Source: a virus (lineage: Duplodnaviria; Heunggongvirae; Uroviricota; Caudoviricetes). From it: a stretch of 8,301 nucleotides of DNA. Shown in pieces: positions 2,271 to 7,392 of the stretch; positions within the stretch are counted from its first letter, which is position 1, and every line of letters begins with the position of its first letter. A program made the position numbers and the translations under genes. Under the pieces are notes generated by a model that searched no databases, had not been told where the DNA came from, and saw only the letters and a list, made by a program, of their open reading frames with translations. The DNA lies in IMG/VR virus record IMGVR_UViG_2609460356_000006; one strand, written 5' to 3'.

Positions 2271-2445
2271 CTTTCAGCCCCCAGCTAACGAAAGTGAACT
2301 CTTTAACGAACCTTTCCAGCGGAAAGATGCACGGAAAATCGTAACCATCACGCACAAACGTTACCCGGTTAAATGCGTTATCTTTCACCGTGACCAGTTC
2401 GCCGCGCTTATCCTTCCAGCTATCGTTGATTTCAGGATTTCGCAC
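2254..2445 (-). CDS. Small conserved phage protein (63 aa), tentatively DUF4222-like
   Basis: ORF overlaps the helicase start by 17 nt and the upstream gene by 14 nt (translational coupling); motif RVTFVRDGYDFPC resembles DUF4222-type proteins as I remember them. Confidence 0.55.
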   Translation of the reverse strand: MRNPEINDSWKDKRGELVTVKDNAFNRVTFVRDGYDFPCIFPLERFVKEFTFVSWGLKDEKRA

Positions 2446-2647
2446 TGTAAGCCTCCCGCGCCTTCACCAGCTCGCCGATAGATTTGTGCAGCAGAGACAT
2501 AATTGCTCCGACACGGCACGCTTCCTCACGGTGTTCTTCACCGTCGGGAATGCTGTCAATCCACATGCTCAGCACAGACATTGCGCACTCACTTTCTGAA
2601 AGGGCATTTTCAGCGTGCATCAGGACTTCAAAAGGAACCTGTCTCAC
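2432..2647 (-). CDS. Hypothetical small protein (71 aa) in the replication operon
   Basis: ORF tightly packed between neighbours with 4-nt ATGA-type overlap upstream; plausible acidic helical protein; no family recognised. Confidence 0.5.
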   Translation of the reverse strand: MRQVPFEVLMHAENALSESECAMSVLSMWIDSIPDGEEHREEACRVGAIMSLLHKSIGELVKAREAYSAKS

Positions 2648-2838
2648 TTTGTCTCTCCCATGTGCAGCTCGGCGATTAATGCCCGGTGAATTTCCTGATT
2701 AAAATCACACGCAATAGAAATCAGATTCAGCAGCGTTTCTGAACATTCAGCAGAGGCTTTTTCCAGGATGGTTTCGTAAAGTGATGAAGCCAGCGCTGAT
2801 TTATATTCGGCCTGCTCCAGACAGATTGGCTCACGCAT
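2644..2838 (-). CDS. Hypothetical small protein (64 aa) in the replication operon
   Basis: ORF overlapping both neighbours by a few nt; no recognisable motif. Confidence 0.5.
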
Positions 2839-3022
2839 AGCGAACCTCCTGAACTGGTAGACGGCCAGCGCATACCATCACGCAGCCAGCCGGTGATTGC
2901 TCACGGGCTTCGCGCTCAGTGTTAGCTGTGATGTGAATGACGTTGCGACCGATGGCGCTCAGTGCAAGAAAACGCCAGATGTAGGACTTCCGCCCTTGCG
3001 GGTGTGTGATATGATCTTTCAT
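2831..3022 (-). CDS. Small Ash/Icd-like protein (63 aa), first gene of the leftward operon (position analogous to P4 kil)
   Basis: Internal ATG at 3022-3020 of the long 2831..3805 ORF, preceded by GAGG 5 nt upstream; product [63 protein letters not shown] resembles the Ash/Icd-like small proteins of P4-like islands (from memory). Confidence 0.6.
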
Positions 3023-3109
3023 AGCTGCCTCGTTACTTTCGCTAACGGTGGTGGTTAGAGGCCCGGTTAGTGTTCCACCACTGCCGGGCTTTGCTTTACT
3101 AAAAGTCAT

Positions 3110-3169
3110 GCAATGTAGTACATTGTCAACTCCACTACAGACTAGACCACAGGAGTTGACAATGTCAAC
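3110..3169. promoter_or_regulatory. Divergent control region with palindromic operator-like sites
   Basis: Perfect palindromes CAATGTAgTACATTG (3110-3124) and GTTGACAaTGTCAAC (3155-3169, centred on the RHH start codon), extra half-site TTGTCAAC (3123-3130); 13-bp inverted repeat CATTGTCAACTCC (3121-3133) / GGAGTTGACAATG (3152-3164). Confidence 0.5.
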
Positions 3170-3335
3170 AAGCGAAAATAAAGAGCGCCATGTTGTGCAG
3201 CTCAGACTCGATAAAGAACTGTCAGAGCGGCTCGCTTTAGCGATGAAAGAAGACGGTGACGATAATAAGTCGGGATGGATAAAACGCCTTTTGCGCCGTG
3301 AACTTGATAAGCGCGGCATCGAGCCAAAAGGCTGA
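3162..3335 (+). CDS. Ribbon-helix-helix-type small DNA-binding protein (57 aa), candidate repressor of the divergent operon
   Basis: ATG at 3162 preceded by AGGAG (3151-3155); N-terminal beta-strand pattern [12 protein letters not shown] followed by two predicted helices. The 3048 start of the ORF track lacks an RBS. Confidence 0.65.
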
Positions 3336-3421
3336 ACAGGGTTACTCCCCGTAATGCTGTGGACTGCCCCTCTTAAAAAGGGTCTGTTTTGCGCAACTAT
3401 TAATGAGTTGTGCAGAGGCTC

Positions 3422-3445
3422 CCCTCTTAAAGAGGGTTGGTTATC
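3422..3445 (+). terminator. Possible weak hairpin terminator
   Basis: CCCTC-TTAAA-GAGGG stem-loop (3422-3436) followed by a T-rich stretch; a similar but weaker copy at 3367-3382. Confidence 0.3.
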
Positions 3446-3654
3446 TTCGCAGCTCTCTACGTTTTTCGTCGGAGCCTCTAAACCACGTTTAACGTTGTTT
3501 TGCCATGAACCCGAATACTGTTCGCCTTTGTCTCGATCTCCGTACGTTAAACGTACGCGGTTAATTTGTGCGTACGGATTTCGTCGGCTCAAGGTTTGAC
3601 CACCAGCGGCAAGCCTGGTAATCTGGCGATGTTTCTGTAAAGCGGTATTGCACT

Positions 3655-3683
3655 GGCGGCCCGGCATGGCCGCCTTTGTTTTG
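3655..3683 (+). terminator. Rho-independent terminator for a plus-strand transcript
   Basis: Stem GGCGGCC (3655-3661) / GGCCGCC (3668-3674), 6-nt loop, followed by TTTGTTTTG (3675-3683). Confidence 0.6.
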
Positions 3684-3687
3684 CCTG

Positions 3688-4380
3688 TCATACAATAGCC
3701 TCCACTTTCAGCCCGCCAGCGGTATACCCCTGAACCCGAACACCATCGACGCGATGACGCTTTTTCGTCAGAAAGCGGATGTGATCTGCGTAGACGTACT
3801 GCCATTTACCATCGAGTGCCACACGTTTAAACCACGGATGAGGCTTAGATATGGTCTGGACAACTGGCGCGGAAGCCTTGCAGGGCGTGGGTTCTGCTGT
3901 GCATACCCCCTTATCGTTACCCGTTACTCTATACAGCCAGTAACTTGCCAGCTTCCCGGTCAATTTACGGGTGCGCACGGGGATATAACCCGCCTCACGC
4001 ATCGCCTTACCAAAAGTGGCATCGTCCGGGTAATACTGGCGGCGTAGTTCCGTAGATACTGAAACGGCAAAGCTGCGTTTAGTCGGGTATTCCTGCCACT
4101 GGCCGACAAATTCAAAAGGAAGACCATTAACCCTTCCTTTGGTCTTGTCCTTGCCGCTTATCCCTACATCATGGTCTGCCTCATGCACGGACACGCCGGA
4201 ACGCAGCCACACCAGCCCGTTACCGTTGTGGCGCAACCCCAGATCGGCAAGCGTAAATTCACCGCGATTAATGGGCGACCAGTCACCGGAAATAACCTGT
4301 TTACGGTTCGCTGAAATATCGTGCTGGCTGGCTACAGGGTGAGCGAATCCCTGCCCGTGGAGGGCATTAATCTTTTTCAT
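3688..4380 (-). CDS. Conserved hypothetical protein (230 aa) downstream of alpA; possibly the inovirus Gp2 / YfjJ-like family (low confidence)
   Basis: Long ORF with SD-like AGGT about 9 nt upstream, 20 nt after the AlpA-like stop (operon). Family guess rests on synteny in P4-like islands only. Confidence 0.75.
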
Positions 4381-4400
4381 CTCAGATTACCTGTGGTTAA

Positions 4401-4685
4401 TTAAGCAGATTTACGGCTGTATGGGTTATTGACGTTCTCTACTGCTGGCGGATTACGAACCCACCAGAGCACATCCGAAAGAAGCCAAGCACAGCTATTG
4501 CGGCCAAAGTGACAGCGCGGAGGGAAGCGCCCCTGCTGCTCCATCTTCCAGCGGCTGGAACGGGAAAGACTGGTGATCTCGCTGCATTCATCTTCACGGA
4601 TTCGGCGATCAAACTTAAAGCCGTACTCTTCTAAAAGGGTGCGGCGCTGTTCAGGATTTGGCGGGGTAAAGGTTATATTTTGCAT
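4401..4685 (-). CDS. alpA: AlpA/Vis-family phage transcriptional regulator (MerR-like HTH), 94 aa with N-terminal extension
   Basis: SLSRSSRW...GRFPPRCHFGRNSCAWLLSDVLWWV aligns by eye with the AlpA HTH and W-x3-EVxxW motifs; GGAGG upstream of the ATG. Confidence 0.8.
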   Translation of the reverse strand: MQNITFTPPNPEQRRTLLEEYGFKFDRRIREDECSEITSLSRSSRWKMEQQGRFPPRCHFGRNSCAWLLSDVLWWVRNPPAVENVNNPYSRKSA

Positions 4686-4737
4686 GCTGCCTCCACTGTT
4701 TCAATGTTATGCGAAGAGATTAGTGGATAAACGACCA

Positions 4738-7316: not shown

Positions 7317-7331
7317 TACGGCATGAACTAA
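7317..7331 (+). other. fis: Displaced 3' end of host fis (codons Y-G-M-N-stop), marking the island/host junction (att core region)
   Basis: TACGGCATGAACTAA encodes YGMN-stop, matching the Fis C-terminus ...KKYGMN as I recall it; upstream codons are CAG preceded by an in-frame TGA, so similarity to fis breaks here. Confidence 0.45.
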
Positions 7332-7358
7332 TTCAGGTTAGCTAAATGCTTGATTAAA

Positions 7359-7392
7359 AAGGCGCTACTCGGCATGGGGAAGCGCCTTTTTT
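7359..7392 (+). terminator. Rho-independent terminator, probably the native fis terminator
   Basis: Stem AAGGCGCT (7359-7366) / AGCGCCTT (7381-7388), 14-nt loop, then TTTTTT (7387-7392); A-run on the 5' side makes it potentially bidirectional. Confidence 0.65.

Follow-up and report, generated by a model that had tools for sequence, protein, structure and literature searches.

Between the stop codon of a gene for a small ribbon-helix-helix (RHH) regulator and the end of the next gene on the opposite strand, a phage satellite leaves a gap of about 350 bp, and the question is what this gap does. It lies at positions 3336-3687 of a stretch of viral DNA of 8,301 nt, called the window below (IMG/VR record IMGVR_UViG_2609460356_000006). 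The initial annotation saw no credible open reading frame (ORF) here and described a plus-strand region of hairpins and palindromes closed by a terminator. We found the listed hairpins, palindromes and terminator at the positions given, and the stop of the RHH gene (3162-3335) does fall at 3335. The statement about reading frames did not hold, however, since a minus-strand frame spans the entire gap without a stop and is kept open in relatives. Judged from the sequence, this conserved, stop-free and translationally coupled frame is the dominant constraint on the gap, and it had been overlooked. We consider it reasonably probable that the gap is the start of a long ORF, here called the bridge ORF, which would be translated to carry transcription over the repressor gene, and that an antisense RNA would gate this translation.

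The bridge ORF has 286 codons and runs on the minus strand from an ATG at 3691-3689 to a stop at 2831 (2831..3691), within a stop-to-stop frame that reaches up to 3805. The gap (3336..3687) supplies its codons 2-119. From there it continues antisense to the RHH gene, crosses a putative promoter/operator region and the leader of an Icd/Kil-like gene, and finishes in the frame and at the stop codon of that gene (2831..3022, minus strand, 63 aa), which is the first gene of the primase operon. Its C-terminus matches NF033153 phage_ICD_like with 51.6 bits (cut-off 25). Within the gap, the bridge frame has no stops and the other five frames have 1-9 each.

The start of the bridge ORF overlaps the end of the preceding gene, which encodes a 230-aa protein (3688..4380, minus strand), as an ATGA (3688..3691) in which the bridge ATG lies over the TGA at 3690-3688. 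A Shine-Dalgarno (SD) sequence, GGAGG, can be read at 3699..3703, 7 nt upstream of the start and within the last codons of the 230-aa gene; other variants have GGAGG or GGGGTGGGG at the corresponding position. Among relatives, the bridge ORF starts by a GTGA or ATGA overlap after AntA/AntB-type genes of ~270 aa, and by TAATG in locus L050. Where it follows alpA, 10-13 nt separate the upstream stop from the start, which has a strong GGGGTGGGG-type SD. Overlapping or adjacent start and stop codons are therefore seen after three different kinds of upstream gene. An automatic start-codon picker mostly chose an in-frame ATG in a hairpin loop, and its SD statistics are unreliable. That ATG, at 3664-3666 in the loop of the terminator hairpin, is codon 9 of the bridge ORF; many copies have ATG there and some have TTG. 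Existing annotations of the region conflict. In phage vB_KppS-Ant (LR881103; L003 2438-3412), Prokka calls a single 324-aa protein for the bridge ORF and has neither the RHH nor the Icd gene, while the RefSeq/PGAP annotation of L001 calls RHH and Icd and leaves the gap empty.

To follow this frame beyond the window, relatives were gathered by three routes: with the 230-aa protein, with a 17-nt palindrome from the gap, and with a pattern made from bases 3594-3691. Seventeen related loci proved to be mosaic between the anchors, with spans of 666-1173 nt, at least seven regulator cassettes, and insertions of 48 or 150 nt. Nevertheless, the bridge frame is open in all 17, over 286-455 codons. Across 15 variants it contains 0 stops, compared with 8-26 in the other frames, and when distinct codon contexts are each counted once, stops make up 0/1723 in the bridge frame versus 123/1719 and 107/1724 in the other two sense frames. 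Shuffling left the bridge frame open in 50 of 20000 trials for the window gap and in 0 of 5000 for the longest variant. All indels in the gap among relatives are multiples of 3, including those inside the segment 3594-3691. This segment, to which we return below, was present in 111 loci that yielded 95 distinct bridge ORFs; 94 of these have at least 176 aa (median ~330), and in 79 the Icd-like domain is in frame.

BLAST (~75% identity over 90 nt) also brought up fis satellites that are less closely related. Their filler is unrelated, and yet they have bridge ORFs of 263-423 codons; the filler sequences of L064-L066, for example, are unrelated and stop-free too. In L065 the bridge ORF ends 19 nt before Icd. 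In a shorter fis satellite of E. coli GPEC1186 (L063 2565-3599), a 344-codon bridge ORF runs through the annotated Icd-like gene out of frame and is then continuous with the reading frame of the gene that follows, with the result that three reading frames are in use over ~200 nt.

The encoded amino acids show a different pattern. In the gap part, variable sites are spread over the three codon positions as 34/37/38, and synonymous and nonsynonymous changes stand at 2:21 to 9:44. The 230-aa gene of the same loci, used as a control, gave 15/10/28 by codon position and a ratio of ~20:14, which is a normal coding pattern. The peptide encoded by the gap has no match in Pfam, PHROG or NCBIfam. By these comparisons, the amino acids of the gap part are under no purifying selection. 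As one part of the overall explanation, we find it rather likely that selection keeps the frame open and does not act on the peptide.

These results bear on the possibility that the long ORF encodes a genuine multi-domain protein, such as an Eta- or Bro-network-type regulator, whose gap-encoded N-terminal part is functional. The ORF is indeed conserved and coupled and has a strong SD; it has been annotated as a protein in vB_KppS-Ant; the Eta protein of satellite P4 is treated as a Bro-network protein (PMC10111431); and short motifs recur in the predicted products, e.g., KTKAA..GR and AGGQ. However, these motifs coincide with promoter and terminator nucleotides, and the absence of third-position bias, the excess of nonsynonymous changes and the lack of domain matches in the gap-encoded part count against this reading. 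In addition, about one third of the ORF mirrors a repressor gene that is swapped between families, and the L063 frame crosses Icd out of frame. We regard a functional protein as unlikely.

The second layer of the gap lies on the plus strand. A 98-nt block, 3594-3691, is nearly invariant in close relatives except for a patch at 3645-3654. When it is aligned with distant copies, the order of elements is TTTGACCACCAGC, which holds a -35 box TTGACC, a 17-nt spacer ending in CCTGG, a -10 box TAnnCT, a conserved G, 20-25 variable nt with indels of 3 or 6 nt, a hairpin, and a nearly invariant T tract. In the window these elements make up a candidate sigma-70 promoter (3596..3624, plus strand), with TTGACC at 3596-3601, a 17-nt spacer with TG at 3616-3617, and TAATCT at 3619-3624. 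In an alignment of 73 copies, the A at -10 position 2 is present in at least 90%, the T at position 6 in 100%, and the G at the predicted +1 (3631) in at least 90%, and the spacing is fixed. A promoter scan calls the site in L079 and L065 at 9/12 with TG, and the terminator is recognised there as well.

The hairpin is an intrinsic terminator at 3655..3683 (plus strand), GGCGGCC-CGGCAT-GGCCGCC followed by TTTGTTTTG, with a 7-bp stem made entirely of G and C and a 6-nt loop; the same nucleotides encode bridge codons 3-12, just as those of the unit as a whole also encode part of the bridge ORF. In 73 distinct copies, 511 of 511 stem cells pair, with compensatory changes in 3 of the 7 pairs, and controls slid along the alignment gave only 21-66% pairing. 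Sixteen of the stem cells are G-U, which would be C-A mismatches on the minus strand. Because pairing is complete, changes are compensatory and the G-U pairs work on the plus strand only, we conclude that the hairpin has been selected as plus-strand RNA, in agreement with the orientation that the initial annotation had given it.

Together, promoter and terminator predict an RNA of ~53 nt (3631..3683, plus strand), with a variable 5' part and a 3' part formed by the terminator hairpin. It would be complementary to nt +9 to +61 of the bridge ORF (A of ATG as +1), i.e., codons 3-20 and the first base of codon 21, leaving out the bridge SD and ATG. We conclude that the 3594-3691 unit probably makes this RNA, antisense to bridge codons 3-20. 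It matches no Rfam family, and a literature search for antisense RNA in phage-inducible chromosomal islands (PICIs), the group to which this satellite belongs, gave nothing useful. The earlier proposal of plus-strand transcription thus survives in part: a separate small RNA (sRNA) is plausible, but a transcript over all 350 nt is not supported, given that the promoter-like unit lies only ~30 nt upstream of the hairpin.

The patch within the 5' part of the predicted sRNA (3645..3654) is hypervariable. Against a background of 2.4 kb that is otherwise almost identical, it has two alleles of 10-12 nt, a GGTATTGCACTG type and a GTTGAGACTCAG type, and it is the sole cluster of differences between the window and L008 over 2300-4700. 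No second site co-varying with it was found between the window and L008 or L001. The patch may be a specificity determinant.

The remainder of the gap is also rich in structure, as had been claimed. Folding gave z = -4.2 for the plus strand and -4.7 for the minus strand, and none of 100 shuffles folded as well. A scan of 2900-4000 found four terminator-like sites, where shuffles gave 1.0 +/- 1.1; three of the sites are in the gap, and all are on the plus strand. Two hairpins (3367-3382 and 3422-3436, plus strand) belong to one 22-nt repeat, CCCCTCTTAAA(A/G)AGGG, and each has a T-rich plus-strand tail; a central hairpin, CAACTATTAATGAGTTG (plus strand), stands between the two repeats, within 3367..3436. 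The CCCTCTTAAAGAGGG hairpins may be weak terminators of the RHH transcript and are named here as candidates. C>G 'rut' bubbles on the minus strand were modest only and uninformative. Searching Rfam with the whole window and with 2980-3720, at permissive thresholds, returned nothing relevant in the gap, where the best match, L20_leader, reached 15.3 bits against a threshold of 58.7 and covered the terminator alone. Two further candidates were discarded. An 81-aa plus-strand ORF at 3354-3599 has no Pfam, PHROG or NCBIfam match and is not kept open in relatives, and a genome-wide repeat of the REP/ERIC/MITE type did not fit with matches in 23 of 5426 E. coli genomes at 1-2 places each.

Could the gap then be non-coding and have only a plus-strand role, either as a long, structured 3' untranslated region of the RHH gene or as one long sRNA that ends at the terminator? 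In favour of this, the plus-strand terminator is genuine, T-rich tails follow three more hairpins on that strand, and the strand has a low folding z-score. This view nonetheless leaves the stop-free minus-strand frame, the in-frame indels and the coupled start codon unexplained. Furthermore, relatives have exchanged the middle of the gap as a whole, a palindrome singled out in the annotation is missing from most of them, Rfam has no match, and an untranslated tail of 350-860 nt would itself be exposed to Rho. We judge it improbable. Instead, the gap appears to be a translated spacer composed of shuffled hairpin-containing modules.

The palindromes had been stressed in the initial annotation. 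The sites are real: CGTACGTTaAACGTACG at 3541-3557, and two related to it, a third copy of CGTACG at 3571-3576 and ACGTTTAACGT at 3485-3495. The exact 17-mer, CGTACGTTAAACGTACG, occurs in 39 IMG/VR viral contigs, including the very divergent islands L049 and L050. Their general importance was not borne out, as the 17-mer is found in only 15 of the 95 related bridge ORFs with the 3594-3691 unit. In L049 the palindrome lies 4 nt past the stop of the regulator and has no T tract; we therefore rejected it both as a terminator and, from its occurrence in 15/95, as a universal core element. We also observed that in phage-like contigs (L060 3400-5400, and also L036, L038 and L061) a palindrome module flanks cargo genes by baseplate genes, that a second module resembling gap filler flanks the same cargo genes, and that neither module lies in a long ORF ending in Icd. 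Because of the 15/95 occurrence and the sites outside long ORFs, we class the CGTACG palindromes as lineage-specific accessory modules, going by their distribution.

A mainly DNA-level function of the gap, through protein-binding palindromes, a replication origin or packaging site, or recombination linkers for swaps of repressor cassettes, would account for the retention of the exact 17-nt palindrome in L049 and L050 without a T tract, for the sharp mosaic breakpoints at 3327 and at module borders, and for the similar modules beside cargo genes in phage-like contigs. On the other hand, there is no iteron array, most relatives lack the palindrome, the origins of such satellites are given as near the replication genes (PMC10111431), and a DNA-level role alone does not explain the avoidance of stops. 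As the main function it has a low probability, but it would be compatible with a translated bridge ORF as an added layer. Finally, it is very improbable that the open frame is a functionless by-product of base composition, of a mirrored gene or of recent common descent: mirror frames of genes are naturally stop-poor (P = 0.2-0.8 for zero antisense stops per regulator gene) and many loci share recent segments, but the gap has no plus-strand gene to mirror, and the shuffles, the pooled stop counts, the indels in multiples of 3 (the 3594-3691 unit included) and the stop-free unrelated fillers of L064-L066 all speak against it.

We therefore return to the bridge ORF as a translated path over the repressor gene, and propose the following mechanism. 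In the uninduced state, RHH protein would hold the Icd-primase promoter, and the RHH transcript would end in the gap. The antisense RNA would cover the start region of the bridge ORF; read-through from alpA would then be untranslated past the 230-aa gene, and Rho would terminate it. The hairpin at 3655-3683 would in addition stop plus-strand (RHH) transcription from entering the alpA operon. After induction, strong transcription of the alpA operon would outrun the antisense RNA. Ribosomes coupled from the upstream gene would translate the bridge ORF, cover ~860 nt and shield the transcript from Rho. Transcription would in this way cross the repressor cassette into the replication genes whatever RHH does at the internal promoter, and would oppose RHH expression. 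We suggest, tentatively and with less conviction than for the bridge itself, that this amounts to an undescribed three-layer switch in enterobacterial fis-type satellites, consisting of a bridge ORF of 260-450 codons whose peptide is irrelevant, a cis-antisense RNA of ~53 nt that is not in Rfam and has more than 70 variants, and a hypervariable patch that sets specificity between co-resident satellites.

Several observations weigh against this explanation. Sixteen of the 95 bridge ORFs are out of frame with Icd, and in L106 the frame has only 60 codons. Because all loci come from related Enterobacteriaceae satellites with recombined segments in common, the counts do not represent independent events. 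The amino-acid constraint test covers 14 window-type variants only. The -10 box of the window (TAATCT) is weak, and its promoter copy, at 8/12, does not reach the threshold of the scan. The search pattern itself forced part of the unit's invariance, in the -35 and CCTGGT columns, and only L063-L066, which were found by BLAST, are free of this bias. The 3594-3691 unit is missing from a second class of islands, whose bridge ORF begins on a gene of the Ant type; the bridge ORF can therefore do without the sRNA. For the Icd operon, scanning the window copy gave no clear sigma-70 promoter. Finally, we infer rather than observe that the region is transcribed and translated, that Rho is involved and that the sRNA acts.

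The closest known arrangement is that of satellite P4, in which translation of eta, as PMC10111431 puts it in citing Forti et al. 1999 (J Bacteriol 181:5225), lets transcripts from the late promoter escape Rho termination. In P4, the eta ATG (8767-8765) overlaps the vis stop (8766-8764) as ATGA and the ORF ends as the 65-aa Kil; our scan places the P4 early promoter at 8728-8699, inside eta. The window follows the same plan: the long ORF begins by ATGA on the preceding stop in the operon of an AlpA/Vis-type gene, spans a candidate internal early promoter and a leader region, ends in frame as a Kil/Icd-like protein of ~65 aa, and lies upstream of small ORFs and primase. P4 Eta, like the window ORF, has a C-terminal phage_ICD_like domain (73.3 bits in the same model).

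The contents differ, however. No sequence similarity links the two N-terminal parts (BLASTP E = 22). The P4 stretch houses the CI immunity RNA with seqA/seqC, whereas the window has no C4 or IsrK match at E <= 10 and has instead a whole protein repressor gene antisense in the ORF. A promoter-terminator unit like 3594-3691 was not found in P4. The ORF of the window group is modular and longer (286-455 codons versus 197-199), and a 230-aa gene or an Ant/Bro gene may stand between alpA and the long ORF. We conclude from this comparison that the region is the P4 eta/kil arrangement with different contents, plus a candidate new antisense RNA.

Two other systems combine small RNAs with ORFs of this kind. 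In the immI region of P1 and P7, the c4 antisense RNA reportedly blocks translation of icd, which leads to Rho-dependent termination before the downstream genes. The c4 RNA arises by processing of the same transcript, has two sites on which it acts in trans, and is represented in Rfam as C4. Both systems thus involve an ORF of the Icd family and a small RNA that blocks translation, predicted in the case of the window. Unlike c4, the predicted window RNA would be cis-antisense, with its own promoter, and its target would be the start of a long ORF far upstream and not icd. The Rfam C4 model found no match here.

The plasmid systems R1 CopA/tap/repA and IncI-alpha/IncB RNAI/repY/repZ use a cis-antisense RNA that is short, made constitutively and equipped with a terminator hairpin, and that lies over the start region of a leader ORF. 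This leader ORF is not known to have any role other than being translated for downstream expression, and small changes in the RNA create new specificity groups. The candidate antisense RNA, with a terminator hairpin at the start region of the ORF, resembles these RNAs, and the two-allele patch at 3645-3654 is comparable to their specificity changes. In contrast to the bridge ORF, the plasmid leader ORFs have 24-30 codons, act by translational coupling to the next gene, and do not protect a transcript of ~860 nt. Moreover, those systems control plasmid copy number and not satellite induction, and we found no sequence relation to them.

Among satellites, Mageeney et al. 2023 (PMC10111431) cite P4 eta when they give an example of a gene of the Bro zone that has layers of regulation. 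The window resembles the fis-integrated Gram-negative PICIs presented there in having the att block TACGGCATGAACTAA by yhdJ and in its zone order of integration (int, alpA), Bro and replication. The text of that source on these islands describes neither a bridge ORF antisense through a repressor gene nor a small antisense unit.

If the proposed mechanism is correct, it would explain how widespread satellites bypass their own repressor after induction, and it would extend to a large group of PICIs a device so far known from P4 only, i.e., an ORF translated solely against Rho polarity. It would also represent an extreme case of overlapping information, with a repressor gene, operators, a promoter-terminator unit and hairpins all placed in one frame that is constrained only against stops. 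The predicted sRNA is a concrete and testable candidate for RNA family libraries.

The embedded regulator and its surroundings fit within the bridge ORF as follows. The RHH gene (3162..3335, plus strand, 57 aa) lies wholly antisense inside it, matches RHH_1 with E = 0.05 and an Arc-like PHROG with E = 0.034, and is annotated in relatives. Across the cassettes of the window and L003-L146, two families of embedded regulators can be told apart: RHH proteins with GIEPKG at their end, and proteins like YlcI/YnfO (MATG..GEIKRRQRK). Cassettes are swapped between otherwise similar islands at sharp breakpoints (e.g., 3327 in the window), each with its own operator repeats. All keep a constant phase relative to the bridge frame and contain no antisense stop, an outcome for which the chance with a single gene is P = 0.2-0.8.

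A perfect 14-nt inverted repeat, ACATTGTCAACTCC / GGAGTTGACAATGT (3120..3165), surrounds the RHH start inside the bridge ORF and is likely, by its placement, an operator at a divergent promoter region; in other variants, a TTGACA -35 box is surrounded by repeats of their own. As regards a promoter for the short Icd-like form within the bridge ORF, operator-like inverted repeats and TTGACA boxes are present, and the alignment reads TTGACA-16-TATAGC in some relatives. The Icd leader (3023-3095) contains two small stem-loops: one is GCCCGG..CCGGGC, which has AGTG/CACT as its inner stem, and the other is GTTA..TAAC, beside the SD. Compensatory changes occur in 4 of 12 pairs among 10 variants, and the site corresponds to that of the P4 CI RNA. 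The plus strand of 3023-3095 gave a weak SymR-like match (E = 0.09, 22.4 bits vs 61), which was the best Rfam match outside the gap.

As for the element itself, the window covers the half of a PICI that is nearer to its integrase, and this PICI has inserted at the 3' end of fis. The att identity block given for PICI satellites integrated at fis (PMC10111431) is present as TACGGCATGAACTAA at 7317-7331, with the fis terminator and yhdJ after it (window 7317-7392), and it is because of this block together with the fis terminator and yhdJ that we assign the island to this class. The terminator region near the att block also gave a weak, sub-threshold STnc40 match (25.6 bits vs 45).

On the minus strand, the gene map runs from a tyrosine integrase (7146-5926) through a 216-aa gene and alpA (4401-4685) to the 230-aa gene, which lies downstream of alpA, belongs to an unknown family and has no Pfam, PHROG or NCBIfam match. 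In related islands its place is held by AntA/AntB-type genes or by nothing. The Icd/Kil-like gene is followed by three small ORFs and the primase gene (2270-501). Of 5426 complete E. coli genomes, only 6 carry an island near-identical to the window; such islands also occur in Klebsiella, Citrobacter and Intestinirhabdus. At the left edge, an ORF at 82-348 of the window resembles the C-terminal part of the IS1 InsB transposase; this suggests that the island is interrupted or truncated after the primase gene.

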